Assembly: GCA_004431415.1 (NCBI GenBank)
Contig: QPMI01000084.1
Span: 1 to 64,000, forward strand
Direction: 5' to 3'
Origin: Cyanophora paradoxa CCMP329
Taxonomy: Eukaryota > Plantae > Glaucophyta
Length of the DNA stretch: 64,000 nt
Both the position numbers and the translations under genes were made by a program. Of the stretch, positions 33,448 to 54,033 are shown in pieces (position 1 is the stretch's first letter; the number at the start of each line of letters is the position of its first letter). A model generated the notes under the pieces. It had not been told where the DNA came from, ran no database searches, and worked only from the letters and a program-made list of their open reading frames with translations.

Positions 33448-34890
33448 CTACTTTCGTGGTCTCAAAGTCGCTTTTCGATCGCCATTAGCTACCGGCGCTA
33501 CCGTTGCTACTTTTCTACTACTTCTTAATGTAGCTTTGGTTTCCGGCGCTTTATAGCTCTCAGTTTGATTAGAGAACGACTTATACCATCGTTGGCTATT
33601 CACGCCGCCGGATAGCTTAGGCTCGGCGGCTGTTACTAGCCGCTGTAATTCTTTATTTACGCGTTTCTCTTTTTGCACGCGATCTTCTAATAGAGTGCCT
33701 TGCGGCACAGTCGCGGCGGCTTCTATGCCCTCTCTACGCAATTGCGCATCGACGCGCGCCTCGTCCTTTGCCGCTTCTAATGCGTCTACTGTGGGCGCGA
33801 TTAGGTAATCCACAGCTTGGACTGGGAATAGCTCGTGAAATGCAAAGCGACCCTCTACGCGATTGCCGTCCGGATCAGTTAGCATAAACTTATAGCCCTC
33901 GCGCCCGGCGACAGTATAGACGATCCGGCTCCAATTGTTACCGCCCTTAGCGAATGGCGTCTTCTCGATCCGTAGCCTTACTGACATGCCCGGCTGAATC
34001 TGATCCAAATAAGCTATCGATTTCTTGAATTTCGCATCTTCTTTTTGCACTATAAGCTTATAGTGACTCTCGTTGGTCTCGGCAGGCATATAGCCGGTCG
34101 CAGAGTGCACCGTATTATTATAATTATATTCCAGCTCGGGCAGGACATCTATAAATCGAGCCGTATTATTCGCGATGCAGTAGCTCGTGATCAGCCGCCG
34201 CATTTGCTTGTTAAATGCTTCTATGCGCCCTTGCGCGCGATGGTCGGCTGTGTCCGCAATCTGATGCTCGATAAACTGATTCTCGAAATATTCTCTTAAC
34301 AGGCTATTAGTGAATTCTGAGCCGCGGTCGCTTTGAATCTTAAAAATTGGTCTCGGCGCCTTATTTTGCAGCTGTATAAAGGCGGCTAAGGTCGACGCCG
34401 CGGACTTATCCCGCATCGGTATAATATATCCGACGCGCAACGTGTTCTCCATCCCTGTTAAAAATGCTTGGTAGCCGTCGTTATACTTAGCATACGCCGG
34501 AAAGAATAGCAGATCAATTACGTAGGTATCGAGAGGCTGTCGGATCGGTATAGCAGGGTCTCGTTTGCGGGATAGGTGCGGCGCATTAATCTGAACGACC
34601 TCTTGCCGGCTATACCACTCTTGCAATTTCTTATAATTCTCATCGGGCAGCTCTTGCCGTAGCTTAGTGATCCCTTTGAAACCGGTTTGCGGATCGTAGA
34701 ATTTACGCGCGATTTTCGATTGCTCCGGGACAGCAAGGGCTACGGGCACGTCGCGGGGCACCAAAGCCTTTAAATCAGACCGCTTTACTATGCGGCTCTC
34801 TTTATTCTCTTTCGGCACGGGGATCGGCAATGTGCTCCCCTCTAAATCTTGCGATCGTCTTACTATTGGCGGTCTTGACATCCTTGTCAT
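33448..34890 (-). CDS. Retroviral-type (rve) DDE integrase
   Basis: FYDPQTGFKG, YVIDLL, QSDRGSEF, QGRIEAFNKQMR, YNNTVHSATGYMP, FAKG..NWS. Confidence 0.9.
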   Translation of the reverse strand: MTRMSRPPIVRRSQDLEGSTLPIPVPKENKESRIVKRSDLKALVPRDVPVALAVPEQSKIARKFYDPQTGFKGITKLRQELPDENYKKLQEWYSRQEVVQINAPHLSRKRDPAIPIRQPLDTYVIDLLFFPAYAKYNDGYQAFLTGMENTLRVGYIIPMRDKSAASTLAAFIQLQNKAPRPIFKIQSDRGSEFTNSLLREYFENQFIEHQIADTADHRAQGRIEAFNKQMRRLITSYCIANNTARFIDVLPELEYNYNNTVHSATGYMPAETNESHYKLIVQKEDAKFKKSIAYLDQIQPGMSVRLRIEKTPFAKGGNNWSRIVYTVAGREGYKFMLTDPDGNRVEGRFAFHELFPVQAVDYLIAPTVDALEAAKDEARVDAQLRREGIEAAATVPQGTLLEDRVQKEKRVNKELQRLVTAAEPKLSGGVNSQRWYKSFSNQTESYKAPETKATLRSSRKVATVAPVANGDRKATLRPRK

Positions 34891-35559: not shown

Positions 35560-35800
35560 TGCCTTTTACTTTAAGCTGAGAAAATATTTTCCTGTTGCCT
35601 AAATGTAGCGCGTTCTCCTTAAATCATTTTGCGTTGCCCACGGGGCTTTCAATTTTTGACGATCCGCGGTGAGATTCTCACGTTTACTGTCAATAAAATC
35701 AGGCTACCTGAGCGTCTATTGTCAAGATTTTCACAATTGTTGTAAACTTTACAAGTAAACATTGCAAAACGCGCAATAAAAACGTGCAGTAAACAGTAAA

Positions 35801-35965
35801 ATGAATGATCCGGTATGGGACGCGCACCCGATCCCTAATTACTTTTTAATCGACCCGGACGACCCCGGATTAAAGTGCATATGGCTTCTCCATATCCTAA
35901 GGCGACAGCTCCTTCAATTAGAGCGCAAACCAAGAAAAAGAACGCACGATAAGATAGACGACTAA
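35801..35965 (+). CDS. Small hypothetical protein (54 aa)
   Basis: GTAAAATG start, MNDPVWDAHPIPNYFL..; its stop overlaps the pPolB stop. Below the ORF-track cutoff. Confidence 0.35.
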   Translation: MNDPVWDAHPIPNYFLIDPDDPGLKCIWLLHILRRQLLQLERKPRKRTHDKIDD

Positions 35966-38900
35966 CAGCCGAATGGAAGGCTATGTATGCCGTCGCCTGA
36001 TATGCAGCGCTTGCTATCGAATTGGGTCAGCGCTATCCGCTTGCTCTCCAAATCATATAAGTGGTGGCATCGCCGTTGCTTGTTTACTACTGTTACTGTT
36101 TTTGTGATCCCGTCAAATAGGCAGCGCTTAAAGTCGTCGAAATGCACCTCTTTCGAGGCTGTCCCGCTCATTTTTACCTTGTCGTAGCTCTCGGTGCGGA
36201 AAGCATATAGCTTCGGTCGCAGCCCCACATACTCCACTATCTTGACGTCGGGCATCTCATTTTTATATTTACCGGGAACCATCCGGTTCTCGGGACTATA
36301 AGGGCAATCTAAATAAGGGCTGATCGCTCGCATACCCGCTTCCAGATCCGCGGTCTCTATATACAGACAGAACGAGTCGGTATCGTGGAACAGCAGCTGA
36401 GCTTGCGAGAAAGTCGGTCGGATCACGTCGTAAAAGAAGCTATAATTATGGAGCTTCGCGGCATCCAGCACATAAGCGCCAATCGCAACCGGTTTATCGA
36501 GTTTTACGTGTTTGCTATACATTTCGAATGCGACCGCAGTCTCGTTTAATACATTCGTCGCTTTTACCAGTGGGCTCGCGGCGTATTTCTTAAACAGCTT
36601 CGTGCTATTCGCGATCTTTACCACTGAGCGCCCTCGACACGATTCCAGGCATTTACCGTAAATAGCATTGTTCATTAATTTAAAGAAGTCGCTCTCGAAT
36701 TTATTCCGGGCTTCCTTTCGCAGTTTCGTGTTTAGATCTATATAGGGCTTCATAAATGCAGCGGTTGCAAACGAGAGCACACGGTGGATCTTAGTAACTA
36801 CGATCCCCTTTTTTACCATATAGAGCAGCATCGGCTGAGACACCACGTAATTATATTTCGGAGTAAACGAGGCGATCAGCTTCGGATCTTTACTGAGCTT
36901 CTCGCCGCTAATCTCCAAAAGCCCACGCTGATATTTCCCGAGCATGTCCGCAGTAATTACCTCTTTACTCACGATCAGCGGGAAATCGCGATGGTCGCCC
37001 TTTAAATAGTCCGGATACGCAAGGTCGACCTCTATAAATGCACTCCGCCCTACAACCTCGGTAAAAGCTGTGCTCGTGTCGTCCCAGCGATAGTCCCCGA
37101 CCGGTAAAGGCTGACTTAGCGCATAGCCATATAGATTATTCGCATCCAATAGCACTATATGTTTATCCTCGCTATTAGCATCGGCATATCGTGTGGGCAT
37201 GGTCGCAAAGCCGCCCCTAATCGCCCGCTCAATAAATTCGTATTGATCCGCATCGCTGATCTGTTCTATCGCGACCCTCGTATGCTTTAACATCGCGTCC
37301 CACGATAGTCCCGGTGCGCTCACATAATGCGTCGGATCCAGTCCGTATTGCTCATGTGCGAGCCTATGTAAATTGCATTTTCGGCAAGCTTTCCCTATAT
37401 AATCGCCGCTTTGGTGACAGTGATCGCGCACAGGGAAGTTTTCGTGGGTAAATCGCTGATTGCATATATAGCAGTGTTTGGTGATTTTATAGGCTTGCTT
37501 TTGCGCCTCTGTGAGCGGAATCATAGGTGTATTAGTAAATAGGGTATTAAGCATCTCGCGGCACAGTTCCCCTAACGTGGTAAACATCTGACCCAGCGGA
37601 TCCACGCCCTCGAATTCGTGATTTTCAACATGCGAGCCCATAACTACATTAAGTGCCACCGACTTTACCTCTCGCTTGGTTCGATTTGGTTCATTAGGAA
37701 CCGGCACCGACTCCATCTCTACCTTGCAGTAGCAGACAGTAGGAAGCCACACCATTTTCCTTAGGTGTTGCAGTCCGAAAGTAATAAAGCTTCCGGGCTC
37801 CGGGCATTTACCTTTACTCAGCCGCCAATCGATACAGCGATTAGAGTCGGTGTGGCTATCGAGTTTCTCCTGTGATCTAAACCGGGACAAGCAGGTTTCG
37901 CAGTAGAAAATGCGCCCGTCGTTTGCTTTATCAAAGGTGGTCTTTAATAGGCGGCTCAGTGACATAATCGTAATATAGTGACCCTGTCCGTTTGCGTCCT
38001 CGATCAGCAGCAGGTTTACCTTCGATTTACGACGCGGATTACTTGACATGTGCAGTGGATAAAAGGTTTGGGTCGCATTGTCGGCGCCATATATATTAAT
38101 TGACAGCTCGGGATTATTGTCCTCGAAACGATCTATTAATGCAGCATCGCAAGCCACCGGGAAATTAATGCCTGAGAAGTCCAGCTCAGTCATCCACCGC
38201 CTATATTGGAACGGATCATTACGTTTGTGTCTGTTTATGTCGTTTCTGTGCAGCCATGCGAGGATAGCGTAATTAAAGCAGTCGTGACCATCGATATTCT
38301 TAATATTTACTGTGGCTCGCTTTAATCCAATCCATTCGGGGGTCTCAATGTAGCAACCGCCCATCGGCGCATATGACAAAACGGCGACATGTAGCTTATC
38401 TAATTTACTGAGCCGGTAGCTGTCGACCTGTATCATCTGTTCATTCATTTGCTGAGCTACACCCACTAACTCAGTGAGAATATTGCGCGACCTTGTGATT
38501 ACGAAATAATCGCTGTATATGTGTTTGGTGATAAAAACGTTAGGATCACTCACTTTTACGTATCGGCAGATGAAAGTAAGTCGCACCTTAATAGCTTTCA
38601 GTTCATCCAGCCTTTCTTTCAGCCGCCCAGGCAGATTTGCAGCGATGGTAGTGAGAAATTCCACCGGATCTAAGATTATCTGTTCATCCGCCTTATAGCT
38701 ATACCAGGCGTATGCTTTATTCATTGCGAAACCGTCTTCCTCATCGGGTTCTATGACGGCTAAGCGCCGCCCTTCGGTATAGAAGCGCTCCACATTTTCC
38801 AGGCGATTATAGAGCTCGTCGGCAATATTTGCAAGGTTAGCTAAGCGGGGTTTTCGATCTAAGATCGCCGCCCTCCGATCGTATTCGGCTTCGGTGATCT

Positions 38901-38982
38901 CGCCAGTGACTAAAAGACTACCTAACAAGCCTAATATTTCGTCTTTTTTCTCTTTTATAAGGCGATTAGTTTGGCGGGGCAT
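35962..38982 (-). CDS. Protein-primed family B DNA polymerase (Polinton type), apparently lacking the exonuclease domain
   Basis: DANNLYG, KLMNNAIYGK, FHDTDS, PKLYA; CFNYAILAWLH; C2H2 finger; endonuclease VII-like finger VRDHCHQSG..ACRKCN. Confidence 0.92.
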   Translation of the reverse strand: MPRQTNRLIKEKKDEILGLLGSLLVTGEITEAEYDRRAAILDRKPRLANLANIADELYNRLENVERFYTEGRRLAVIEPDEEDGFAMNKAYAWYSYKADEQIILDPVEFLTTIAANLPGRLKERLDELKAIKVRLTFICRYVKVSDPNVFITKHIYSDYFVITRSRNILTELVGVAQQMNEQMIQVDSYRLSKLDKLHVAVLSYAPMGGCYIETPEWIGLKRATVNIKNIDGHDCFNYAILAWLHRNDINRHKRNDPFQYRRWMTELDFSGINFPVACDAALIDRFEDNNPELSINIYGADNATQTFYPLHMSSNPRRKSKVNLLLIEDANGQGHYITIMSLSRLLKTTFDKANDGRIFYCETCLSRFRSQEKLDSHTDSNRCIDWRLSKGKCPEPGSFITFGLQHLRKMVWLPTVCYCKVEMESVPVPNEPNRTKREVKSVALNVVMGSHVENHEFEGVDPLGQMFTTLGELCREMLNTLFTNTPMIPLTEAQKQAYKITKHCYICNQRFTHENFPVRDHCHQSGDYIGKACRKCNLHRLAHEQYGLDPTHYVSAPGLSWDAMLKHTRVAIEQISDADQYEFIERAIRGGFATMPTRYADANSEDKHIVLLDANNLYGYALSQPLPVGDYRWDDTSTAFTEVVGRSAFIEVDLAYPDYLKGDHRDFPLIVSKEVITADMLGKYQRGLLEISGEKLSKDPKLIASFTPKYNYVVSQPMLLYMVKKGIVVTKIHRVLSFATAAFMKPYIDLNTKLRKEARNKFESDFFKLMNNAIYGKCLESCRGRSVVKIANSTKLFKKYAASPLVKATNVLNETAVAFEMYSKHVKLDKPVAIGAYVLDAAKLHNYSFFYDVIRPTFSQAQLLFHDTDSFCLYIETADLEAGMRAISPYLDCPYSPENRMVPGKYKNEMPDVKIVEYVGLRPKLYAFRTESYDKVKMSGTASKEVHFDDFKRCLFDGITKTVTVVNKQRRCHHLYDLESKRIALTQFDSKRCISGDGIHSLPFGC

Positions 38983-39112
38983 CTTTTACTTTAAGGGAAC
39001 ATTTTTATTTCGGGAAAGGACGCGTTCAAAAATGTGGAAACATATTTAAGGACAACTCAAAAAAATGACACATAGGAAAACATTTTATGTGTATCAGATA
39101 TAGAGAAACACA

Positions 39113-39607
39113 ATGAATACCCAAGAGATAATAGAATATTGTAAGACACTTACAAATATTCCCGTAACAGAAGCAACAAAAGAATGCACAGACAAGAACT
39201 ATCTCAAATGGGAAAAGAAGAATGCGCGTAAGAAGGTAATCTTTGTTATATCACAAACGCGTAAACATCAGGACATGTTTTTACATCTTAATATGGCTTC
39301 CCAGTTTTACCATCCGCATAGGCAGCACATATGCGCATTGGTTTACAAAGGATATAAAATGTTAATACCACTTGACATTACGAAAGAGAAATGCATTGAG
39401 GTAATACAAAATGTTATATCCGGCTATTCTAAAAAACAAGATGGGGAAGTTAAGTGTGTGATTTGTTTAGAGGTTATAGAAACGGAAGATTTAGCTTGTG
39501 CGCAGTGTAATAGTTCTGTGTGTGAATCTTGCATATCCAAAATGACTTATAAACAACGTTTTACCTGTCCAGTTTGTCGTATTGGGAGCTTGCAACAATA
39601 CCATTAA
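39113..39607 (+). CDS. RING-finger protein
   Basis: CVICLE..ACAQCNSSVCESC..CPVCR. Confidence 0.75.
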   Translation: MNTQEIIEYCKTLTNIPVTEATKECTDKNYLKWEKKNARKKVIFVISQTRKHQDMFLHLNMASQFYHPHRQHICALVYKGYKMLIPLDITKEKCIEVIQNVISGYSKKQDGEVKCVICLEVIETEDLACAQCNSSVCESCISKMTYKQRFTCPVCRIGSLQQYH

Positions 39608-39647
39608 TGGCAAGTGCCTAAGTTAGCTTACTGACGTTTTTTGTTTT

Positions 39648-39866
39648 TCGATAGGGTGGGGAGGGTGGGGTGAGGTGGGGCATTTTTTGAGTTCCAATAA
39701 AAAATTCTCCCACCCAAACATTTTGGGCAAAAAAGACCCCACCCAACCCCACCCTCCCCACCCTGTATTAACAACCATGATTTACACTGAAATTCAATGT
39801 GTTTTAAGTTATAAAAATAAGATATATCAATGTTAGAATGAAACCAGGTGGGGTGTAGGGTGGGGT
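39648..39866 (+). repeat. G-tract/C-tract inverted-repeat module immediately 3' of the helicase stop
   Basis: Same module as at 27363-28380. Confidence 0.85.
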
Positions 39867-40794
39867 CAGGCTTCCACATCTGAATCCTCGAATTTGGTGC
39901 CCCTTTTCTTTGGTTGCGGCTGAGGAGAATCATCTTCTTTAATCGAATCATCATCGATAAGCTTCAACTTTCGGAATTCAGACATCATCTCATTCCACAG
40001 GAAGTGATAGTTAGATTTTCCATTGGTCGTTTTCACTTGAATATATGTAGTCGTGCGCATCTCAGTATAGAACCGCTTGCTATTATAATCGTTTTTATAT
40101 TTGTTTTCAGAGATGAAGTCTTTGAACAGCTCCCATGTCGATGCAAGACCGCCCAGCTTGGTTTTCAGCTCTGTAACCCGCTCACTATCGACAAGCCACT
40201 TCGCAAACATAAGAATAATCGGTGCAGCCGCTTGCTGAACTAAGTAGTATCGGTTTGTTAGCGGTCTGTCTTGACTCCAATTGACTTTCTCGCAATTTAC
40301 TTTCGTCCTGAGATACTGAACGATATTTCGAATATTTCTCATATCATTCAGCCACTCAACAAGCGGGGCGAAATAATCCTTATTACAGCGCTGTTTGTCA
40401 CTCACCTCAATGACCACAAAGCGACGATCATCAGCCTCGATCTTGACAGGGACAGTATTGTTGCTTGTGAAAACGATTCGCGCGAAATTCTTCTTATCAT
40501 ACGAGTCTATTCCTTTGTGCTCAATTACAATCTTCGGGGCTGTGACTATATCTTTGAGAAGGTCGCTATGTTCAAAGGTGTCCTTTCCGGAAGCTTCATT
40601 TACAACGATCAGAATCTTATCCTCCCGATTGTGAGCAAACCGCCCGAATAAATCATCCTTTGGCTTGGCTGTCGAGTATGCCAATGCATCACCGAGGATC
40701 TTCTTCTCAAAGGTATCAATGAGCATATTCTTTCCAGCGCCTTGGCGACCTAGGAAGATGAGGGACACGTTATTTAGTTCCCCCGGCTTTTGCA
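39866..40794 (-). pseudogene. SF3 (D5-like) helicase: 3' half of the interrupted primase-helicase gene
   Basis: QKPGE..GRQGAGKN (Walker A), IVVNEA (Walker B), FTSNN, DDRRF. Confidence 0.9.
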
Positions 40795-41198
40795 AGCTCA
40801 GCACTGCGCCGTGTCTCCAAAAAAATACCCGCGAAAAAATCAAAAACAAATCAGAAAACAAACCATTCCCAGTAACCCAATCTTGAATATCAGTAAATCT
40901 CAGTAAGCCTCAGTAAGAAACATTGAATTAATCGAAGTTATATCATAATCTCGATTAATTATATCTTATCGAAGTTATATCTTTTTTATGCGCCGTGTCT
41001 CCAAAACAATTCCCAAGAAAAACAAACCATTCCCAGTAACCCTATTCGTATTCAACAGTAATCTCAGTAAGCCTCAGTAACAAAAATCGAATTAATCGAA
41101 GTTATATCTTAAATCTTATTTATCGAAGTTATATCATAATCTCGATAAATTATATTTAATCGAAGTTATATCCTTTTCATCCGCCGTGTCTCCCATGA
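40795..41198 (+). repeat. Left TIR of element C (404 bp)
   Basis: Reverse complement of 51933-52336; contains three CGCCGTGTCTCC subrepeats and multiple ATCGAAGTTATATC. Confidence 0.95.
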
Positions 41199-41633
41199 AT
41201 AACTAAGTAAGTTTAGTTAAAACCTCGAAAGAAAAACCTCTCATTTTTTACTGTATTTTTTGAACGATTTTTTACTGTATTTGTTACACTAGAAACAACA
41301 ATAGAAACGACAATAAAAACAATAGAATTTTAATTGTTTTTGAATCGTATATACGTCAATATATCACTGTAATATATATCATATATATCATAGGAAATCG
41401 ATTTATAGTCAAACCTATAACATATCAATTTGTGTATATGTGATATATATTCATATATGACGTCATGATGATGATGTATATGTATCTGATATATATGACA
41501 CACCGGCTTATTCGGGAGATCATGACGATCACGGCGATGTGTATATTGTCATGATGTATATGTATATATGTGTGACGCAATCTGATTGGTGTGCTACTTG
41601 TTTTGTTGTATCCCCCTTCAACTTCTCCCCAGG

Positions 41634-41887
41634 TTTATATCACAGATAACATCTCAGATAATACCTCAGATAATACCTCAGATAATACCTCAGATTATAT
41701 CTCAGATAATACCTCAGATTATATCTCAGATAATACCTCATATATTAATTTTAAATTTGCTGGCTTCTGATTGGTTCATGCCACAGAGTAGGGACTTTTC
41801 ATCAAATGCGCCATAAAATGCGCCATAAAATGCGCCATAAAATGCGCCATTAAATGCGCCATTAAATGCGCCATTAAATGCGCCATG
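41634..41887 (+). repeat. Two 12-bp minisatellites: (CAGATAATACCT)~9 and (AAATGCGCCATW)7
   Basis: At 41634-41740 and 41804-41887. Confidence 0.9.
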
Positions 41888-42130
41888 AAAACCCGGGGAA
41901 TAAACCATAGTAGGGTATATGATCTCACGGTTCAAGTTTCGCTCACGTTTCACCGAAATTTCGGTAAATCGATTATCGGCATCTTCAAACGCTTGTATCT
42001 CATCACCAGATTATGATCTCGCAACGTTTTGCATAGCGTTTTGAAGCGCTTGTTAAGCTCTACACAACTACGTAATCATCGTATTATTTCAAGCTACCTT
42101 GTCATACAATATTTCTCACAAATCGTCCTT

Positions 42131-42889
42131 TCACACACTGATTGTGGTCATTTCTCGTTGGATCCGAGCCATCTGACCCCTTTTAATTGCTTTTCTCTTC
42201 ACAAACTTCTTAAAGCCCTTCATATCATCATCTGTTAGTACTGCTCTATCAGTATAGGTCTTGATATCATAACCTTGCAGGCTAGCTATGACAGTTTGGT
42301 AATTATAACCCCATAGTCTATGCAATTCCTTGTAGGTCTTCTTATCCAAACCACCATTGTACTCATCAAAGGCGCAATTGAACTCTTTCTCGTTCCCAAG
42401 AATATTGAAAAATACAACGAACTCCACATTGCGACGAATGGTAGTAGAAATAGAACACAAACGCTGAACATTAAAGATTACCGAGATTGAATAATGTCTT
42501 CCACTCGTTACTAATTTAGATAACACAGCCGAATTATGCATATCCAAATTTGAACCTATCATGTCATCGAGTATGATAACTAGGTTATTTCGCTTTTCGT
42601 TATTCTCAATTCGTTTCTTTTGCATACTGATCAATCTCAAAACAATGTTATCATCCCACTCTTCATAGATGTTATCGGGATGGGTGATGTCATTGAATTG
42701 TCCAGTAAAAGCTGTTGAACTAAATATAACGATTTGATTGATCTTGTCACGAAGCTCGTAAAGTAAGTATTTTGTGAACATTGTCTTACCTGTATTGGAG
42801 CGACCAACATTCAAAATTCTTGTCGGGATTCGAACCGTCTTACTCGGATCGAACTCCGGAATATCATCAAGATTTACTGTGTTATCCAT
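42131..42889 (-). CDS. A32-like genome packaging ATPase
   Basis: GRSNTGKT, LVIILDDM, SGRHYSISVIFNVQ, IRRN. Confidence 0.9.
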   Translation of the reverse strand: MDNTVNLDDIPEFDPSKTVRIPTRILNVGRSNTGKTMFTKYLLYELRDKINQIVIFSSTAFTGQFNDITHPDNIYEEWDDNIVLRLISMQKKRIENNEKRNNLVIILDDMIGSNLDMHNSAVLSKLVTSGRHYSISVIFNVQRLCSISTTIRRNVEFVVFFNILGNEKEFNCAFDEYNGGLDKKTYKELHRLWGYNYQTVIASLQGYDIKTYTDRAVLTDDDMKGFKKFVKRKAIKRGQMARIQREMTTISV

Positions 42890-42969
42890 TACAGTAATAA
42901 GATAAAAAACAAAATAAAGTACACACCTACAAATAATTGCGCTTCCTACACTAACAAAAGAAAAGAACT

Positions 42970-44196
42970 TTAGAAGTTCGAGACTTTCAGGGTAGAGATG
43001 TTGTAGCCATTAAGTACCATAACATTGTGTCGGAGGGCATAGATATCAACCTGAACAGGAGCGGCATCAGTGCATCCGGAAACAGTGAGATCCATGTAAC
43101 TCGAGCTGCTGTTGAAGAAATCCTGGTAACCCATAACCGAGTTCCGAAGCGAATCTTTTCCAGACTTGGAAAGAACAATTCCGTAAACATTTCCAGACTC
43201 GAATCCGTACGTGGTATTGCCCACAGTAACACCCTTGTAGTGAGAAGGAATGTGATTGACAGCAGAGAGGAAACCGGAAATGGGTTTGTTAGATATATCC
43301 AGGGAGCGATTGTTGTGGAAGATCTGGAACTGATCAATCTTAACAGCAGATTCATGACCGCAGAAATCCGAGTGAGTGTAGGTGTTAAGTTTGTTCACCT
43401 CTCGAACAGTCATCAGAATCGAGTGAACCAGACCAGAAACATTAGCGAGTGTAACCTCAACCGATTCACCAGCATCAGCGGTTTTGAGCGCTCGGGTCTT
43501 CTTGTGAATGACCTCTGTGATCGGGATGCGAATGCCACCTTGTTCGTTCGCCATTTTAAGGAGTGTCTCAGCCTCAGCCGAAGCAATGTTTACGAATTGG
43601 CAGATCAGAGAGCAATCCGCAAAGGTTACAGATCCACCAGCCGGAACTTGGACAATCGCAGCATCACGGAAATCAACCTCGATTGTTGGCATATCGGCTA
43701 GCGTACATAATGGGAAATAAGCTTCTTCCCAGAAAGCAGCGGGGATTCTAACGATGTATTCCATTGCTTCATCTGTGCTTTCACGATCTGTCTCTTTGAA
43801 GTAACCGAGAGAAGCATACATGCTGCTCATGGTAGCGTGATCATTATCGACCAGGGCGTTTACAGTGATCCAATCACCAGGGATAATATACTTGAAACCA
43901 CCATGAACGAAACGGACCTCATTAATAAAAGAAGAACCACCATTGGGGAGGGTGCAGGCTACACCACCACCAGTGGCAATCTTGAAATAGAGCGAAACAC
44001 CAGCAAGGAGTTGCTTGCGAGGTAGATCAAAGTAAGCGGTATTCTTGAAGCCAAAAGTGTTGCCCCGGGGACGAACTTGCTCGAGGAATGGTTTGTATTT
44101 GGGGTTGGTTCCGATTTGGAGACCAGGGGAAAGATAAATTTGATCGGAACCGGGAGTTACGAGGAGTTCCTTCAGGGTAGTTCCAGTGAGTGCCAT
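42970..44196 (-). CDS. Double jelly-roll major capsid protein
   Basis: 408 aa, next to the ATPase and penton; colinear homology with 57699-59147 (F.LPR, V/MRIP, GY.D...S.SS, A..HN). Confidence 0.75.
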   Translation of the reverse strand: MALTGTTLKELLVTPGSDQIYLSPGLQIGTNPKYKPFLEQVRPRGNTFGFKNTAYFDLPRKQLLAGVSLYFKIATGGGVACTLPNGGSSFINEVRFVHGGFKYIIPGDWITVNALVDNDHATMSSMYASLGYFKETDRESTDEAMEYIVRIPAAFWEEAYFPLCTLADMPTIEVDFRDAAIVQVPAGGSVTFADCSLICQFVNIASAEAETLLKMANEQGGIRIPITEVIHKKTRALKTADAGESVEVTLANVSGLVHSILMTVREVNKLNTYTHSDFCGHESAVKIDQFQIFHNNRSLDISNKPISGFLSAVNHIPSHYKGVTVGNTTYGFESGNVYGIVLSKSGKDSLRNSVMGYQDFFNSSSSYMDLTVSGCTDAAPVQVDIYALRHNVMVLNGYNISTLKVSNF

Positions 44197-44248
44197 CTCT
44201 TATGTTTAAAATACCAAAAGAAATTTTTAAAATGCTTTATTAAACAGA

Positions 44249-45136
44249 ATGACGCGTTACTATCTCAATATTGATTCCAGGGACCGATCGGATGGAACCC
44301 CAACTAATTTCACATACAGACTCCCTTATGCGATCCAAAAGGTCAGAGCCTGTCGAGTAACGAACTTTGAGATGTTTCACAATCTTTACAACCTCTCTGA
44401 AGTAGGAACCCTCACCACACAAACACTCGATAATGCTGGGAACCCAAAGAATAGAAACAACGAAGTCCTCCGAGGTGCATATACACCGGATTCACTGGTG
44501 AATTATCTGATCGCTCGCATTGGATCCCAGCCCTATAATCAAGCGGGTGGCGGAACTTACACTCGCCATTTCTATGTAACCTATGATCCCACAACATTGC
44601 TTCTAAGGTTCATGTGTGAGGTTCCATTCTCAATCACTATGAACACTCAACTCTTAGCCAATTTCTGTGGTTTTGAAAATGCTAACACACTGTACCAATC
44701 GAGTCCTCTATCATCTAATGTCACAGTTGGAGCCTTTACTTATGCTCACTACATTGATAGTGAAATGCCATTAGATCTACTATTTAATTCCTATTTGCTT
44801 CTTCATGTTGATCCACTGAAAGGAAGATATGTGAGCAATAACAAACGAGATAACAATGCTATCGCGAAAATTGAGATTGACCAAACGGTTGGCAGTCTAT
44901 TAAAATATGATTCATCGAATAATTCCATGATCGTTCACGAGCAGAATGGCTTGGTTGAGGTTGAGACTCTAGATGTGAGACTTTCTTACTGGAATGGAGC
45001 CACAGCAGACATTACTACCGACTGGTCGATGACTCTTGAACTGATTACTGAAGATGATAAAGATCTGACGAAAAAAGCATTGAAGAATGTCATAAAAGAG
45101 TTGGAGGGACTCTACCTGCCGTTCTCACGGTCATAG
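44249..45136 (+). CDS. Minor capsid (penton) protein
   Basis: YLNIDSRDR..FTYRLP N-terminus; LDVRLSYWNG..WSMTLEL C-terminus. Confidence 0.8.
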   Translation: MTRYYLNIDSRDRSDGTPTNFTYRLPYAIQKVRACRVTNFEMFHNLYNLSEVGTLTTQTLDNAGNPKNRNNEVLRGAYTPDSLVNYLIARIGSQPYNQAGGGTYTRHFYVTYDPTTLLLRFMCEVPFSITMNTQLLANFCGFENANTLYQSSPLSSNVTVGAFTYAHYIDSEMPLDLLFNSYLLLHVDPLKGRYVSNNKRDNNAIAKIEIDQTVGSLLKYDSSNNSMIVHEQNGLVEVETLDVRLSYWNGATADITTDWSMTLELITEDDKDLTKKALKNVIKELEGLYLPFSRS

Positions 45137-45172
45137 GAAATACTGTAGAATAAATTTGTTTCAATATTACAA

Positions 45173-45934
45173 ATGGCTCGCAAGACTCAACCCAAGAATT
45201 TCTTAGCCAAACCAGCCGCTGAAGCGGATGTTGGCAATGGTGAGAATGGAAGGAACTGGTATAAGAAATCGAAAGGACTCGCTGCATACGGAACTGGTGA
45301 CCTCGAAAAGGAAGTCCATAAAGAACGAAACCAATTCACCCAAGCCACTACGAAAAACAGTAATGATGATAATGCCCTTGTTGACCAAGTCCCACTGAAC
45401 CGCATGCCCGGAGCCAAACGAGGAATCAAGAAAGGACAGTTCAAATCATCCACAAAGGACAAGGTTGCCTCATCATCGACACTGCTGAAACTGCTTGATG
45501 GTGGTGAGCGACTCTACTCAACCTATTCCGAGAAAGACCATCGCAACCGCTACTTTATTCGTTCAACCACTGGTGGACTGAAATCTGTAACATATCAGTA
45601 TGCTAAGAGTCTTGTTGATGGTATTGCAGCAGAGACCAAAAACGAAAACAAGATCAAGGAACAGCCAATCACAAAGGAAAAGGTTGAGAAGAAACCAGAA
45701 GTAACCCATGAAGTTATTCCCGAACCTGTTCATGTGGCAAAAGACTCACCTACAGAATTGATTGCAAAGACCATTGAGTATCAAGACTCCAACAAAACGG
45801 ATTTGCCGGTTCTCAATAAGTCGATCCTTCGGGTTGCCACTTCGCAGGCTGATCCAGTCAACTCGATTCCAAATGCTGCCCCAATGGTCTCTGGATTCGC
45901 CAAGCTTGGTATAAGACCCGGTTATCGCCGTTAA
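45173..45934 (+). CDS. Hypothetical basic protein (possible core protein)
   Basis: Intact 253-aa K-rich ORF. Confidence 0.65.
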   Translation: MARKTQPKNFLAKPAAEADVGNGENGRNWYKKSKGLAAYGTGDLEKEVHKERNQFTQATTKNSNDDNALVDQVPLNRMPGAKRGIKKGQFKSSTKDKVASSSTLLKLLDGGERLYSTYSEKDHRNRYFIRSTTGGLKSVTYQYAKSLVDGIAAETKNENKIKEQPITKEKVEKKPEVTHEVIPEPVHVAKDSPTELIAKTIEYQDSNKTDLPVLNKSILRVATSQADPVNSIPNAAPMVSGFAKLGIRPGYRR

Positions 45935-46282
45935 GGATCAATCTGAATAATATAATTTCTCAAACATTGTTAGCGCTACGTAACCAATCCTATCCCGTAG
46001 GCTCAAAACTTCTTCATTTTTATGGAGGCGTTGTAGAGCGAAGTGAAATATCCATAGGTAAATCACTTTAATCACCTGTTCTACCGGTTCAGTGGTAGAA
46101 ACTTGCAGCCGACAAGTGAACCTTCTGGGTATCGGTGGCTTTATCATTTTTCCAGCATCTTCTTTCGTACTGGATGCTCTGCAATCGGGACCAAAATTTG
46201 ACAGGAGTTTATTCGCTATATACAGACAGAAAAACTACTTAAAGATTTCTTAACATATATTAAGAGAGTAGAAAAGGACAAC

Positions 46283-46540
46283 ATGCCAATCAGTGAGGCT
46301 CAGAAGCGTGCTACTTATCGTTATCGTAAAACTGAAAAAGGTCAGGAATATTTGAAAAAGTACAATGCCAGATTTGCAAAGCAAATGCGTGACTTATACC
46401 ATACTGATGAGTGTTACAGAGCCATGAAGATCGTTGAGAGTTCCCAGCGTCTCTATGCTTCCAATGCAGTCTGCTTTGTGAAGTATCTCTATGGTGTCCC
46501 GTATTCTAACCGTGGTCGCAAATCGAAATATCTCTGTTAA
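46283..46540 (+). CDS. Small basic, probably DNA-binding, protein
   Basis: SEAQKRATYRYRK..MRDLYHTDECYR; similar to 54244-54474. Confidence 0.6.
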   Translation: MPISEAQKRATYRYRKTEKGQEYLKKYNARFAKQMRDLYHTDECYRAMKIVESSQRLYASNAVCFVKYLYGVPYSNRGRKSKYLC

Positions 46541-46781
46541 TCGTTTTTCTCAGCGCGATCTGCTCTGAGAAACCCGTGGGAAACGCGCTGGAACCACAAA
46601 TATAATCATTCTGTTATTTTTAGAGTTCGATGATCGAGCCAACCCTTTGTTATTTTTATGAATGCCCTCGACTAAATTTATTTTGTTGGAGACTTTTGGT
46701 TTTGTCGGTAAAATTTGACGCGAGTATAAAAGTATTTAAAGAAAACTTTTGTAGGTATATATTAATAGAGTGAACAAAGAA

Positions 46782-49700
46782 ATGCCTCGACCAAGTAATC
46801 GAATTTCGAAAAATTTGCAGGATGAGATTCTTGGCTACTACATGCAAGCAAAAGTAGAAGACAAATTGACCCGAGAGCAGGATATCTATTTCTTGAGAGA
46901 ATTTACTTTCAAAGCAATTAGAATTCCAAAGTTGATTGATATCAGAGATACACTGAGAGGTATCGTAGAGCCTCGTTTGTATCGCAAGCAGGAGAAGAAG
47001 GAGAAGAGGGCTGAGAGAGCCGCTAAGAATGTTGAGAAGCAAAACAAGAAAGCGGAGCAAGCGAGAGAGCGGAAGCGCTTGACTCCTTTCCAGCAGATGA
47101 TTGCTAACCTCCGTGAGTTTGTTGAAAACTCACCTGGAAACATGGTCACCCTGAATGTGAGACTCTTCCGTGAGTTGCAAGAGGGAGAACAAGCCCCTGC
47201 AAATGCAAACAGGGTCACTGAGAATGGTGTGACCTACATTGAATCGAAGAGGCTTCGGAACAATCGCCCCTTTGGTATCCAGTGTACCAAGGCAGCTTTT
47301 CTGAATGCTCTCGGTCTGGTTCAATCCACCTTCAATACGTTCCCATGTGTTGAGGGGACTGTCATTGCTGAATTTATTGCAGCAGTTATTGAGTTTAACT
47401 CGACCAATCAAGATTTCCGCTACCTAAAACTAATTGAGCAAGATACCTACCCCGATATTATGACAATTGAAAGAGTCATCACGACAGATAATGAAGAATA
47501 CATCCCAAGAAATGAACAAGTCCTCAGAGACAATACAAACGCTCCAATGATTATTTCGAATTTCATTAAAAACGAAGGGAACCCCCAAGCCACCACATTC
47601 AAGGAAATGTTCTTGAAAGGTGATTCATTCAAGGTTGGGAAGTGTGTTTTCGATGTCCTCATCAAATGGTTTGGAGGAGCGTTTGAGAAGGCTAAGACCA
47701 AAGGGAAATACAAGCGAATCGATTGGTCTTACAACGGACTCTTTAAGATGGTGAATGGGCGAGACCCTGTTGAAGGAGATGATTGGGGCATTTCTTTCAA
47801 GTCCATTTCGGAGAAGGTTCTTGACCCACTGCGCCTAGGCATGGTTACAATTGGAAAGGACGACAGAACCCCTGTCCCTGAACTGACTTTCCTGCCCAAG
47901 ACCAGGAACACACACTTGACCCCTTCTGTTGCATATGTGAAGATTGAGAATGGTCACATGTATTTGTTAAATCACAATATTAAGGCTCTCACACAGTCCT
48001 TCAATGGCTCCAAGCCAAAAGATACCAATGTTCCACTCAGTTCTCGTTACAAGATTATAAAGCAAAGAAGGTTCAAGGAGTTTGCCACAAATCCCGATGA
48101 CATTCTGAGAATTGTCAGGTCTGACAATCCAAAGAACCAATCGAGCATTCGAATCTGCTATGGTGGTTCACTGGATGAACTACTCAGAGAGTTCATTGTG
48201 GTGCATAATTATCAGGTCCAACCTGGGTTCTCCCAAATCGGAAAGGCAACCCATATTCGTTTCACTATTGACGATAAGGATGTTGTCGTGACCCCACCTG
48301 GTAACGATACAGATGTGGAAACAGCTTTCGAGATTAGCTTCAAGAATGCTGAGTACAGAGATAAATTCGAGAAACTAAATCTGGATATGTATAGGTCTCT
48401 AATCAACACTTCCAACAAGAGTACTTACAATGAGCAAACCATAAATGCATTCAAGAATGGAGTGCAGACTGCCCTTCGTGGTCTCTTTGATGTGGATGAG
48501 GAGACCTTTGATGAAATTCGCTATAACACAGATATTTACGAGTTCGATATGTGCAAAGCATACCCTTACATTGTAGCCTTGATGATCAAATTCGTTCCTG
48601 TTCTCAGCAAGTTCGATGTCTTCAAGAGTGTGACAATCACAGATGCAGAGCAAATCGAGGAATACAGCTTCTATTACGTGAAACTGGACGACAAATACTT
48701 TTTCAAAGCCAAAGACAAGAACGGAAAGGAGTACGAAGCAAACACCTACAACAGATACAAGAGGATGATCATTGATTCCAAGTACAATGTTGTTCCTGGT
48801 TTGGTTCTCAAAAAGCATTTCGAGGATTTCAAGGATGACATCTCCATCAAAGCGGTTCTGCGACCTTACAAACTCATTCCCAACCTTGCAGGCAACACAG
48901 TTGCTCGAATCTTAGATAGCGACCTCGATCCTGTTGATAAGAAGCAGATCTTGGTGAGTGCAATTGGGCAAACTGGAAAGCAACGAAATAGCAGAGTGAA
49001 AACCACCATTTTCCACAACAGAGACGATGCGATCGAGTTCCAGAAACAGAACGGAGGGGAGGTTAAAATTTACCTCTTTGGTGAGACTCTTGCCACTTAT
49101 GAGGAGACAGAGTTCGTTCTGTGTGAGGAAGAGATGACCGAACCCCATATCTACTATGTCAATCAGGTAGCAGAAAAGCAGCTCATTGATGGCTTCATGC
49201 CATTGTACACTACCCTCTTGTCAATTATGAGGATGTGTATGTATGAGAAGTGTGTCGAACTCGCTAAACAGCAGATCCGACCACTCGCTTTGAACACCGA
49301 TTGTGTTTATGGGATCGCTTATGAACCCATTGCCCCAGTGTCATTCGATCGCAATGCCTTTGAGAATATTGGAAAATTCAGTGTGAAATGCTGCCCCAAT
49401 TTTTCTAAAAAGTTTTCAGGTGAGAAGAAAGACCTCGAGGCAAAACGAATTCGTTACGGAAAGTTTGAGAGAGCGACTGACTTTGTGAAAATCGAGAACT
49501 ACAGTTATACCAAACACTCTGTGGTTGATGAGTATGACACAACCGCGATTTGTGATTTGCTGGCTACACAAAAACGATGGGTTCTTCTCGGATCAGTTCC
49601 AGGAGTTGGAAAGACTCACATGACAGTTGAATATGGGAAGCGTTTCAAAAATCCCCTCTATATTGTTCCGACCAACAAGCGAGTGAAGGAAATGAAAGAG

Positions 49701-50870
49701 CAAGGATTGAAAAATGTGAAGACAATCTATGATGCCCTTCATCTCAAAATCGATGAGTCGAACATGGATGAAATCGTAGGAGGGAATGCATCTGGTTTGG
49801 TAGAATTTGATTGCATTGTTATTGATGAGATCTGTCAGTTTAAGATTGGAGAACTGGCAGCCCTGGACCACATCATGAATGAGCAGTTCCCAGATAAGGT
49901 ATACATTGCCACAGGTGACCCGTATCAGAACCCACCCATTCAGGATATGAGTGTTGATCAAGATGAGTATTACCTTGATATCCTCCATCGCCTGTTCCCC
50001 AACGAATTGTTACTCCAAGTGAACAAGCGCCATGAGACTGAGGAAGATCGCAGAAAGGTTGAGCAAATTCGAATTGATTTATTCGAGAAAGGTTTGAGTG
50101 TAAGTGAGGTCCTAGCAAAGTACGGGTTCAAGGTTGTGGACGAATTGGCAAAGACAGATAAAGGCATTGTGTATACAAACCGCAAGGGTGCAGAGGTGAA
50201 CCTAGCCCTTCACAAAATGAACTACGGGGATAATGTTTCCATTTATGCTGGCGGGATCAAAGTTGTTGCAAAGACTCGTATTGCAAAGGGTGGGAAGATA
50301 GTTCATAATGGATTTGTCTACAAGATTGTCAAGCTCTCAAAGGACAGTTTCATTATTGCTGACATTGCCAACAAGAAGGATGAGATTGTTCTCAGCAGGG
50401 ATGCAGTCAAACATTTCGCCCTGGCTTACGCAAACACCTGCCATGTTGTTCAAGGTGATACGATTCGCTGCAAAGGGAACAGGGTAGTCGTGTTCGAAAC
50501 TGGGGCGCCATTTGTTTCAAAGAAGTGGCTATATGTTGCTCTCACTCGAACCACAAGGCTGGATGATGTTGTTATTTACCATGATAATTTCGAAATGGCT
50601 CACTGGAAAGTGTGGAAAAGAGAGAATAACGAGAAGATTTCGACTTACAAGGATCAGGACCGAGCAGCAAACAGACAATTCGATGAGCATGATTACATCA
50701 CATGGGATTGGATCAAGCAGCGATATGGGAAGCAGTATGGGCATTGCCTGCGATGCTACAATGCCATGGACTTTGAAGATATTTCGGTAGATCGAATTAA
50801 TAATGCTGTGGCTCACATTACCAAAAATTGTTTCCTCTCTCATATTAAGTGTAACTGTGCCGCCCAATAA
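46782..50870 (+). CDS. Divergent pPolB - SF1 helicase - HNH-like fusion
   Basis: Pol motifs YEFDMCKAYP, KQILVSAIG, LNTDCVY. SF1 motifs GSVPGVGKT, IVIDE, TGDPYQNPP, YANTCHVVQGDT, LYVALTR. C-terminal CLRC..SVDRINN..H...NC...H..CN. Confidence 0.85.
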   Translation: MPRPSNRISKNLQDEILGYYMQAKVEDKLTREQDIYFLREFTFKAIRIPKLIDIRDTLRGIVEPRLYRKQEKKEKRAERAAKNVEKQNKKAEQARERKRLTPFQQMIANLREFVENSPGNMVTLNVRLFRELQEGEQAPANANRVTENGVTYIESKRLRNNRPFGIQCTKAAFLNALGLVQSTFNTFPCVEGTVIAEFIAAVIEFNSTNQDFRYLKLIEQDTYPDIMTIERVITTDNEEYIPRNEQVLRDNTNAPMIISNFIKNEGNPQATTFKEMFLKGDSFKVGKCVFDVLIKWFGGAFEKAKTKGKYKRIDWSYNGLFKMVNGRDPVEGDDWGISFKSISEKVLDPLRLGMVTIGKDDRTPVPELTFLPKTRNTHLTPSVAYVKIENGHMYLLNHNIKALTQSFNGSKPKDTNVPLSSRYKIIKQRRFKEFATNPDDILRIVRSDNPKNQSSIRICYGGSLDELLREFIVVHNYQVQPGFSQIGKATHIRFTIDDKDVVVTPPGNDTDVETAFEISFKNAEYRDKFEKLNLDMYRSLINTSNKSTYNEQTINAFKNGVQTALRGLFDVDEETFDEIRYNTDIYEFDMCKAYPYIVALMIKFVPVLSKFDVFKSVTITDAEQIEEYSFYYVKLDDKYFFKAKDKNGKEYEANTYNRYKRMIIDSKYNVVPGLVLKKHFEDFKDDISIKAVLRPYKLIPNLAGNTVARILDSDLDPVDKKQILVSAIGQTGKQRNSRVKTTIFHNRDDAIEFQKQNGGEVKIYLFGETLATYEETEFVLCEEEMTEPHIYYVNQVAEKQLIDGFMPLYTTLLSIMRMCMYEKCVELAKQQIRPLALNTDCVYGIAYEPIAPVSFDRNAFENIGKFSVKCCPNFSKKFSGEKKDLEAKRIRYGKFERATDFVKIENYSYTKHSVVDEYDTTAICDLLATQKRWVLLGSVPGVGKTHMTVEYGKRFKNPLYIVPTNKRVKEMKEQGLKNVKTIYDALHLKIDESNMDEIVGGNASGLVEFDCIVIDEICQFKIGELAALDHIMNEQFPDKVYIATGDPYQNPPIQDMSVDQDEYYLDILHRLFPNELLLQVNKRHETEEDRRKVEQIRIDLFEKGLSVSEVLAKYGFKVVDELAKTDKGIVYTNRKGAEVNLALHKMNYGDNVSIYAGGIKVVAKTRIAKGGKIVHNGFVYKIVKLSKDSFIIADIANKKDEIVLSRDAVKHFALAYANTCHVVQGDTIRCKGNRVVVFETGAPFVSKKWLYVALTRTTRLDDVVIYHDNFEMAHWKVWKRENNEKISTYKDQDRAANRQFDEHDYITWDWIKQRYGKQYGHCLRCYNAMDFEDISVDRINNAVAHITKNCFLSHIKCNCAAQ

Positions 50871-51931
50871 TGGATAGTGTATTATCATTCAAAAAGTATA
50901 GGCAGAAACTGATTAATGAAAAAGTGAGTTTTGATGAAAAAGAGTTGAAAAAGAAGTTCAAAAACTCAGAACTCCAGCAAATTTACAAGAAACCAAGGAA
51001 ACCCAAATCGTTTCTTCGCATAGTGGCAAAGCCTAGATCGTTTCAAATCGATATAACATATTTCAGAGGGTTTCAGACTGCCAACAATGGCATTTTCAAA
51101 ATGCTTAGTTTCGTAGACATACTTAGTCGCAAAGGATTTGTTTATCCTTTTAAAAACAGCAGTGAGATCCCGAGCATTTTAAATAGGTTCAAGCAAGAAG
51201 CAGGCAAAGTTAATGCTCTCTCTGGGGATAATGAGTTTTCCCAGGCAGTATACCGAAATTGGTGCAGTGAACATGGTGTAATGCTATACACAGATGTGGC
51301 AAAGGATGACCACATCACAGTAGGAGATAAACTGGGGATAATTGATAGGTTCACTAGGACTTTCAAACAGTATCTCAGAAAATCGATGACAGCAAAGGGA
51401 ACCACGAAATGGATCGATCTACTTAGTGATGTAATTGACTTGTATAATAGCAGTCCCCATTCTGCATTGAAAAATGACTCTCCAAATGCAGTGTATACAA
51501 ATGAAGATAAACAGTTATTTATTTACATGAGGGATACTGTTCACAACAATCGTGTAAAGGAGGCTGATACTAATCAAGTGAAACCAGGAGACACAGTTCG
51601 AGTTTTGCAACCAAAGGGATTGTTTGAAAAAGAAGGTGCGCAATTCAGTCAGAAGGTCTACACTGTTGCAAAGGCTGATAGGAATCGTTTCAAAGTGCTT
51701 GAAGATAATGATGGTGAGGAAACAAAAGAAGTGAAGAGGAGATTTAAGAAACAAGAATTGCAAAAGGTGAATAAAGATGATATCATTAAGATACCATCAC
51801 AAAAACGGATTCAGCAGGTTAATAAAACGAATAAAGTGAATCGATTGGTAGCAAAAGAAGGCATAAAACCCAATCGAAGTAATGTTGTAAGGAGAAGATA
51901 CAATCTGAGAAGTGGTTTAACGAAACGCTAA
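50870..51931 (+). CDS. rve DDE integrase
   Basis: FQIDI, DILSRK, SGDNEF, GIIDRFTRTFK, YNSSPHSAL. Confidence 0.88.
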   Translation: MDSVLSFKKYRQKLINEKVSFDEKELKKKFKNSELQQIYKKPRKPKSFLRIVAKPRSFQIDITYFRGFQTANNGIFKMLSFVDILSRKGFVYPFKNSSEIPSILNRFKQEAGKVNALSGDNEFSQAVYRNWCSEHGVMLYTDVAKDDHITVGDKLGIIDRFTRTFKQYLRKSMTAKGTTKWIDLLSDVIDLYNSSPHSALKNDSPNAVYTNEDKQLFIYMRDTVHNNRVKEADTNQVKPGDTVRVLQPKGLFEKEGAQFSQKVYTVAKADRNRFKVLEDNDGEETKEVKRRFKKQELQKVNKDDIIKIPSQKRIQQVNKTNKVNRLVAKEGIKPNRSNVVRRRYNLRSGLTKR

Positions 51932-51932
51932 A

Positions 51933-52336
51933 TCATGGGAGACACGGCGGATGAAAAGGATATAACTTCGATTAAATATAATTAATCGAGATTATGATAT
52001 AACTTCGATAAATAAGATTTAAGATATAACTTCGATTAATTCGATTTTTGTTACTGAGGCTTACTGAGATTTAGTGAGATTTGGAATTGGGTTACTGTGA
52101 ATGGTTTGTTTTTCTTGGGAATTGTTTTGGAGACACGGCGCATAAAAAAGATATAACTTCGATAAGATATAATTAATCGAGATTATGATATAACTTCGAT
52201 TAATTCAATGTTTCTTACTGAGGCTTACTGAGATTTACTGATATTCAAGATTGGGTTACTGGGAATGGTTTGTTTTCTGATTTGTTTTTGATTTTTTCGC
52301 GGGTATTTTTTTGGAGACACGGCGCAGTGCTGAGCT
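51933..52336 (-). repeat. Right TIR of element C
   Basis: Ends ...GGAGACACGGCGCAGTGCTGAGCT, followed by TSD TTGCA. Confidence 0.95.
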
Positions 52337-54033
52337 TTGCATCATGTGGGCAAACCACTTTTTAAGATAATCGAATGTCTTATCATCTTCGCCTGACATT
52401 AAATATAGATGTGTCAGAAAAGGCTGAATCATCTCTTCTGTCACATCCTCGGGGGGCGGCTCCTCGAATTCTTCATGATCAATCTTGAATCCAGGGTAGA
52501 GATTAAACACAGACTTGCATTTCGCGCTCAGCTTTGCAGGAGGCGGCAGGAAATCCATATAAGTGGATCGTGTCGCCCTTGGGTCAGTAATCCATTCAGG
52601 TAGCGTTTTTACCCACTTTTCGGTTTGGTTCTCAGTCCCCTCATTGAGAATCACCTTGTGAAACAGATGGGGAAAATGTTTGGTCGCCAATTTCGTAATA
52701 TCTTTCGGTCGCCAGGATAATAGCTGTTCATCCCAATACATGACAGTGCCGATGCTCTCGATGTGATGCAGCCTCGCATTTAAATATCGCAGATGGACTT
52801 CAAAGCTATCGACCATAGGTGGAATGGGGGCAGTCTTGTAGTCAATATCGTCGGAATCCTCAGGCTGAAACGAATATTTCTTGGGAATAGCTTATTATAA
52901 CTGTCGCTGTTATCCTTTTTCAGCCAGTAAACAATCGAACCGAATGTGACTCGCTTCCCTTCCACCATTTTCTTGCCTTTGCAAAGGCTCATGAACTTCT
53001 CATGACAGTCATCATATTCATATTTTTCGCTTTTCTCCGAGAACTTATGAAATAGCTCTACTTGTTGCTTGCGAGGGATATTGTTGTCTTCGCAAGTATT
53101 GATTATAGCAATACCTACGTCGATCCATGTCTTATATTCATTAGCTCGCTCGCCACTGAGGCTCATAATGACTTCTTGCAACAGTTCAAACGAAACCTTA
53201 TTATCTTTGAGATCCTCCAACACCTCCTCCTTCTTCTTCACAGGTTCTTTACAGGGCTTGTCCTTAACAGACTTGGGCGCCACCGTTTGCTTAGGTTCCT
53301 CAGGCTTTGTAGCTTCCTTTGGTTTATCGACCGCAAAGGCTGACATGGTGTCTACTTCCACCCACTTAGTGGGGCGATCGAAACATTGCACCAGGAAAAA
53401 ACCATCGTGCATGCCTTCTTTCTCGCAATCAATAAACTTAGTGAACACCACATTCTTATCGACATCGTGCTTTGATTTGCTTTGAGCGTCCAAAGCTTCG
53501 CCTTTGCAGCAACGGAGGCAGATCAGGTTTTGAGTTGTTCCATAAACGCCACTATCGAATTCGACATTTTTGATGAGACCCATCGCTTTAAAAAGCTTTG
53601 GAATGTCTTCGTGGCGGCAGACCAGATCGGTAAATACGAAATGCCCGGAAATCTTGAACTTAGTGACATTCTCTTTGATTAAATGAACCCGGCGATGGCG
53701 AACAGCAACCGCAATTGTAGATCCCGACAGGGTTTGCAATTTCTTGCGCATTTCCCTGATGATCTCTTCGGCTTCCTTATAGTTGTCGGCTACATCAGGT
53801 TTCAGATCAACGAACTTGTCCAGATCCAGATAAACACGAGTCACTTGATCAGGTTGTATGCATTCCGCCCATGTAGGATAGGTCATATTGTCCCGTTTCT
53901 TTGAGTTATTGATGCGCTCAATAATTTCATCATCGGTTAACTCAACCAAATTGGACTTATTGCGTGCACCTTGCAGACATTTCAGAAAGGTGCCCTTGAC
54001 ATTAGAGAATGCGAATTTCGTGATAGCGTCCAT
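52337..54033 (-). pseudogene. AEP primase + PriCT-2: 5' part of the interrupted primase-helicase gene (also a -1 shift in the G-run at 52883-52885)
   Basis: YLDLD, ISGH, DSGVY; EYKTWIDVGIAI..FHKFSEKSEKY; FNLYPGF; KKWFAHMMQ. Confidence 0.9.

Follow-up and report, generated by a model that had tools for sequence, protein, structure and literature searches.

In Polinton/Maverick elements, pPolB follows the domain order TP-vOTU-Exo-Pol, with an inserted nuclease finger, a vOTU Cys/His pair and the polymerase motifs (accessible text of PMC11161782 and 10.1101/2023.08.22.554363), and the protein described here has the same arrangement, its TP-like domain being a tentative assignment. The second source, a nematode preprint, reports in its accessible part that Exo I-III are conserved in the integrase-linked pPolB1 and pPolB2 of all taxon groups. 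Loss of the exonuclease is treated by Krupovic et al. (PMC11161782, main text as accessible) in two highly derived cases, the mavirus pPolB, which has an exonuclease remnant, and the pPolB-S1H fusions, which are exonuclease-less. A helicase gain stands beside both cases, and the authors proposed that exonuclease loss is coupled to helicase gain and to lower fidelity. The available sections of three further papers tie DUF5906 to mavirus-related elements (PMC13215967), describe a helicase fusion that retains the exonuclease (PMC12721341) and map stand-alone SF3 helicases on the PolB tree, the latter in a text whose available part does not use the word exonuclease (10.64898/2026.10.13.758929). 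In phi29 DNA polymerase, which proofreads, the two catalytic metals are bound by the four carboxylates of ExoI-III; its exonuclease domain has two further roles, as a part of the downstream template tunnel and in contacting the terminal protein (PMC4974454, accessible text).

Here, we analysed a pPolB encoded in a window of 64,000 nucleotides of the Cyanophora paradoxa CCMP329 assembly (contig QPMI01000084.1, positions 1 to 64,000). The gene belongs to an integrated Polinton-type endogenous virus, flanked by GC-rich DNA and probably hosted by a microbial eukaryote, whose linked DDE integrase and A32 ATPase resemble those of Polinton/Maverick elements. The rve-like integrase of the same element (33448..34890, minus strand) gives a weak rve match (E 0.007) and an IS481-like DDE match that is below the cut-off (E 6.7e-11). 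The A32-like packaging ATPase of this outer element lies at 55934..56845 (minus strand; Pox_A32, E 9.3e-11), and a 482-aa protein at 57699..59147 (minus strand) is the putative major capsid protein by its place, its size and 25% identity to a 408-aa protein of a second, nested element; it found no sequence match in Pfam, NCBIfam or the PDB. A primase-helicase gene is split into a 5' part (52338..54033, minus strand) with PriCT-2, with AEP-like motifs seen by eye and with its frame broken near 52.9 kb, and a 3' part (39866..40793, minus strand) with a P-loop DUF5906 domain, an SF3-type helicase (E 6.3e-20). Between them lies the nested 11.5-kb element (40795..52336), bounded by inverted repeats of 405 nt, with a direct repeat of 5 bp on its flanks. 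No pair of terminal inverted repeats of the outer element was found in the window, and its right end likely lies beyond it. Judged from its sequence, the window copy is damaged: it carries the nested insertion, and the frames of the helicase gene and of the stretch at 59-64 kb are broken, breaks that may stem from decay or from assembly errors.

The pPolB ORF itself (35962..38982, minus strand, as are all features below) encodes 1006 aa with a TP-like domain, a vOTU domain, an exonuclease remnant carrying an EndoVII finger and a polymerase domain (DNA_pol_B_2 in Pfam, E 2.1e-11). The N-terminal domain (aa about 91-203, 38374..38712), which we tentatively call TP-like D1 after the accessible description in PMC11161782, is modelled by AlphaFold as four strands plus two helices in both the window protein and its diverged relative P0241. 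The vOTU-like protease domain (aa about 216-345, 37948..38337) retains the catalytic Cys235 and His, which are also present in 136 and 135, respectively, of the 137 other aligned proteins. Of the exonuclease fold, the N-terminal half follows (37540..37740, three strands and a helix), with Lys420 at the ExoI position (37725-37723) and Glu422. The Endonuclease VII-like zinc finger within the exonuclease domain (37369..37494; Endonuclease_7, aa 497-538; DHCHQ at 37425-37411) matches at E 1.4e-4, slightly under the curated cut-off, and above the cut-off in P0241. An 8-aa spacer (37348..37371) leads from there to YGLDP (37347-37333), the sequence around this junction being ..ACRKCNLHRLAHEQYGLDPTHYVSAPGLSWDAML. 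The polymerase domain (35962..37347) comprises PolA (37149-37126), PolB (36681-36652), PolC (36390-36373) and KxY. In a 139-row alignment PolA, PolB, PolC, RGG and KxY are all retained in the window protein, so that the initial annotation of an intact 1006-aa ORF with intact polymerase motifs holds. A domain search found no helicase domain in the ORF, so there is no SF1 helicase behind the palm.

That annotation had also drawn attention to a very short run from the finger to the polymerase, at a place where Polinton-type pPolBs were said to have about 200 aa, and to a degenerate ExoI; each of these points was borne out. The spacer, counted from the last Cys-Asn of the finger to YxLDP, is 8 aa in the window pPolB, against at least 176 by alignment columns in 135 of 139 aligned pPolBs. 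Among homologues in which both anchors matched (103 of 120), it is 155-256 aa long with a median of 196; it measures 180-254 in 45 of 88 loci, and in a set of 120 shorter proteins 19 gave values of 180-202. Besides the window protein, three rows have short spacers, namely P0241 (89), P0352 (98) and P0264 (140), the last being a sponge gene model whose spacer may possibly reflect a gene-model artefact or a separate decay. The ExoI Asp column holds D in 135 of 137 other proteins and Lys420 in the window protein, which retains Glu422. All four exonuclease carboxylates are present in 133 of the 139 aligned proteins; the exceptions are the window protein, in which three of the four are gone, P0241, P0352, P0264, P0363 and P0001. 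Relocation of the Exo motifs within the ORF or the window, which would have spoken against a loss, was ruled out: neither the pattern HN...[YF]D nor Y...D[VTC]..L occurs anywhere in the 1006-aa ORF, and an HMM of the missing exonuclease segment found no match in the six frames of the 64-kb window (best E 1.3). The same HMM matches P0241 (7.8e-9) and P0352 (4.4e-14).

Is the 8-aa junction shared by other copies of the element? At least half of the words of the stretch are present in 19 of 24 sequencing runs that carry one organism label, and four runs were aligned to window positions 35500-39500. One contig of run X1 (record 3; 1982 nt, depth 1258) crosses the junction. Its positions 1-468 map to 36896-37363 and its positions 711-1982 to 37363-38634; positions 469-710 lie between the two pieces and yield a net gain of 243 nt, exactly 81 codons, at 37363 (aa 540). 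By arithmetic from this mapping, the spacer of the X1 form is 8+81 = 89 aa. The longer form is thus represented by one contig of one run and is known from length and position, not from its letters. The listed pieces of runs X5 and X9 end on either side of the junction; since they stop there, they are uninformative on the spacer, and the longer form depends on that one contig. A full-length exonuclease in the sister contig was ruled out, as it is still about 100 codons short. The comparison of copies therefore has two sides: sisters with a full exonuclease were not seen, but the X1 contig, with its 81 additional codons, does not share the 8-aa junction.

The sister contigs also bear on the age of the ExoI change and on selection. 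Record 21 of X9 spans the ExoI codon with four differences, three of which are listed elsewhere; as Asp would require two, too few unlisted differences remain, so the codon is not Asp and the change is common to a contig of another run. In record 3 of X1, which has three unlisted differences in its second piece, Asp at ExoI is unlikely. Among the best-supported 40 of 97 differences from the sister contigs, 33 fall inside the ORF, 28 of them synonymous and five conservative, where 22% synonymous would be expected. The dN/dS comparison proposed at the outset thus gave a pN/pS of 0.05, which shows purifying selection on the polymerase of the family and sets no date for the 243-nt loss. No indels inside the ORF occur among the differences listed. 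The runs listed as sharing words with the stretch included no RNA run; X20, guessed to be one, contributed one 234-nt piece, which was not counted as evidence of expression. Loose ends of sister pieces at window positions 36256, 37187, 37244 and 37801 appear by eye to belong to another pPolB family, more diverged, that these runs also contain.

An index-free search of 1.84 billion representatives recovered the diverged relative P0241, a protein of 1083 aa from a single Logan contig that is 47% identical over its whole length and scores 893 bits, the next match reaching 404. Its spacer is exactly 89 aa. P0241 lacks all four exonuclease carboxylates: the ExoI D/E are replaced by Q/K, the ExoII N/D by D/G, and the ExoIII columns are gapped, being among 95 columns that are gapped in P0241 and occupied in most relatives. 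Identity between the window protein and P0241 is 0.61 in the vOTU domain and 0.55 where the polymerase begins (its first part), but drops to 0.29 around ExoI; this lowest value is expected if the constraint on the exonuclease was relaxed. With the exonuclease columns excluded, the two proteins form a clade among exonuclease-intact relatives (FastTree 1.0; SH-aLRT 100, in quick trees of 28 hand-picked rows and of 16 rows out of 139), and they share seven further internal gaps. The lineage as we define it thus consists of two proteins, the window protein and P0241, and one sister contig. Shared-word protein searches returned no close relative, a blank that carries little weight because they also missed P0241. 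Besides P0241 itself, a two-sequence profile search yielded no more than four pPolBs, all ordinary or truncated, and viral and metagenome scans gave distant pPolBs (29-38% identity) or nothing, with the exonuclease motifs of their matches checked for 88 loci only. In the Atlas, the P0241 segment falls with ordinary DNA_pol_B_2/Endonuclease_7 clusters.

Structure prediction, likewise proposed at the outset, modelled both proteins confidently (AlphaFold mean pLDDT 88.1 for P0241 and 87.9 for the window protein) and could not tell the two spacer forms apart. In the P0241 model, the finger is preceded by three strands and a helix and followed by one strand, one helix and three further strands; within residues 421-600 these strands and helices are retained with block pLDDT of 81-96. 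In the window model, only the part of the exonuclease fold before the finger is retained. The best structural match of the P0241 model is phi29 DNA polymerase (Foldseek E 2.4e-18), and its residues 420-1060 superpose on residues 5-575 of the phi29 enzyme with Z 19.2 and an rmsd of 3.2 over 486 residues. As the AlphaFold input consisted mostly of intact relatives, the models are weak evidence for folding of the remnant; they neither separate the 8-aa from the 89-aa form nor indicate that the remnant is needed.

Based on these observations, we consider it probable (roughly three in four) that the lineage lost the catalytic residues of proofreading together with about 100 aa around ExoIII, and that the window copy then likely lost a further 81 codons alone. 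Proofreading is predicted to be absent because P0241 has lost all four carboxylates and the window protein three of them; exonuclease activity would accordingly be missing in the whole lineage, and a higher error rate of its polymerase would be plausible. The losses in P0241, the ExoI change common to the contig of another run and the 28 synonymous among 33 listed differences argue that the loss of proofreading is old and evolved. The initial annotation of an evolved, proofreading-less polymerase can thus be kept for the lineage; it cannot be kept for the 8-aa form itself, which had been read as a clean loss rather than fresh decay, since a high-depth sister has 81 more codons and the copy is damaged elsewhere. 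The striking junction is likely particular to the window copy and would represent a late, single-copy event. The additional 81 codons of X1 would correspond, by length and position, to the remnant seen in P0241. We suggest that the usual form of the family has about 1085 aa and an 89-aa spacer, with a dead remnant predicted to keep the RNase-H-like core. The same length of 89 aa at only 47% identity points to a structural role for which the dead core would be retained; like the exonuclease domain of phi29, the remnant likely walls the downstream template tunnel and touches the terminal protein. The SF3-type helicase of the element likely assists unwinding, after the proposal for mavirus, the link between pPolB and helicase being seen in this window only. 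The extra deletion of the window copy would remove the second half of the exonuclease core, and its simplest view is a late event in a decaying copy.

Alternatively, the 8-aa form could be a functional, spreading sub-lineage in which the exonuclease is reduced one step further towards the mavirus state. We regard this as unlikely. The in-frame deletion, the lack of any listed ORF indel against the sister contigs, the full set of polymerase motifs and a model that is confident across the junction would all fit such a sub-lineage, and contigs drop rare variants, so that a lack of the short form in X1 is not demonstrated. However, the X1 contig, sequenced at high depth, shows the longer form, P0241 has exactly the X1 length at 47% identity, half of the predicted beta-sheet core is deleted and other genes of the copy are disrupted. 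Less probable still is an assembly error at a locus that truly has the 89-aa form. No listed sister piece bridges 37363 in the short form, as such an error would predict, but the 3-kb ORF is free of frameshifts and of listed indels, and an error would keep the frame one third of the time; the conclusion on the lineage would in any case be unaffected. Hardly credible is a family that proofreads normally, with full-length sisters or an exonuclease elsewhere, and a window copy that alone has decayed: damage to other genes of this copy and room for a separate exonuclease gene beyond the window, at the right end of the element, would allow it, but even the sister contig lacks about 100 codons, the ExoI change recurs in a contig of another run, P0241 is without the four carboxylates and the exonuclease segment is absent from all six frames of the window.

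With loss of proofreading at the level of the lineage as the preferred reading, how does this polymerase relate to the described ones? The window pPolB is 27-36% identical to aligned Polinton-type relatives and differs from Polinton/Maverick pPolBs by the lost exonuclease carboxylates and the deleted ExoIII segment. It resembles the mavirus type in that an exonuclease remnant occurs together with a separate SF3 helicase, whose gene is broken in this copy. In contrast to the mavirus-type virophage pPolB, as far as described in the accessible text of PMC11161782 and PMC13215967, it is Polinton-sized and carries an EndoVII finger, the closest relatives recovered are Polinton-type enzymes with an intact exonuclease, and the 89-aa form is predicted to keep more of the exonuclease fold. 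We tentatively infer an origin independent of the mavirus pPolB from a tree that comprised no mavirus sequences. With the Tlr1-like pPolB-S1H fusions of PLVs and transpovirons (PMC11161782, accessible text) it has in common the absent exonuclease and the presence of a helicase, but no SF1 helicase is fused to the window pPolB. The phi29 enzyme, the closest fold to the P0241 model, has four exonuclease carboxylates and proofreads, as stated in the accessible part of PMC4974454. In the literature searched, with supplements and most subscription papers outside its scope, we found no description of an EndoVII-bearing Polinton-type pPolB whose exonuclease is dead and shortened. The lineage is probably a further loss of proofreading, at an intermediate stage, in an EndoVII-bearing Polinton pPolB. 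If true, a Polinton-type enzyme that is ordinary except for its dead and shortened exonuclease, with exonuclease-intact relatives at about 30-36% identity and a nearby SF3-type helicase gene, would be a further case caught half-way, and the natural exonuclease-dead and intact proteins would make fidelity, strand displacement and helicase dependence comparable side by side. It also illustrates that the most striking form, met in a single integrated copy, can overstate the usual state of a family.

A dead, shortened exonuclease also occurs in another pPolB (Logan proteins P0352 / P0394), with a spacer of 98 aa and an origin that may be shared or convergent. In P0352, the ExoI D is changed to A and the ExoII D to E, ExoIII is gone, and the deletion is nearly identical to that of P0241. 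P0352 stands apart from the window protein and P0241 in trees, although a single clade is not rejected (AU p 0.16, in a quick test with 16 of 139 rows under LG+G4), and it has none of the seven other gaps common to these two proteins. Tentatively, and at somewhat less than even odds, we speculate that EndoVII-bearing Polinton pPolBs lost proofreading independently of the mavirus and Tlr1 types, perhaps twice, in the window lineage and in P0352, and along one common path, with mutation of the catalytic residues, deletion of the ExoIII subdomain, retention of the dead core as a scaffold and an SF3 helicase carried in addition. The spacers of 187, 98/89 and 8 aa would then be living intermediates towards the mavirus type.

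Several minor observations concern the surroundings of the gene. The outer element has a primase-helicase beside its pPolB, and thus possibly two replicases, the former broken in the window copy; an HNH-AP2 endonuclease gene (56905-57624, minus strand) lies between its ATPase and putative capsid genes. The nested element has inverted repeats of 97%, an A32 ATPase, the capsid-like 408-aa ORF and an rve-like integrase, as well as a 1362-aa ORF whose C-terminal part is an SF1 helicase, like the pPolB-S1H kind; if this ORF is of that kind, one window would hold a second type of exonuclease-less replicase. Residues 99-216 of P0241 (window about 38374-38712), the TP-like domain, match the little-finger domain found in Y-family polymerases, with Z about 9 and an rmsd of 2.5-2.8 over about 105 residues, which may reflect no more than a common arrangement. 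A 3.5-kb tandem duplication occupies about 26100-33200 of the window, and pieces of it recur at 39647-39768 and 41981-42024. Positions 1-13800 form another virus-like, GC-rich region with Peptidase_S74 and HNH matches and with heptamer repeat arrays at 11086-11226, 11598-11690 and 13684-13751. A gene for a phosphatidylinositol transfer protein, host-like and apparently interrupted by numerous short introns, lies at 17129-18370 on the minus strand.
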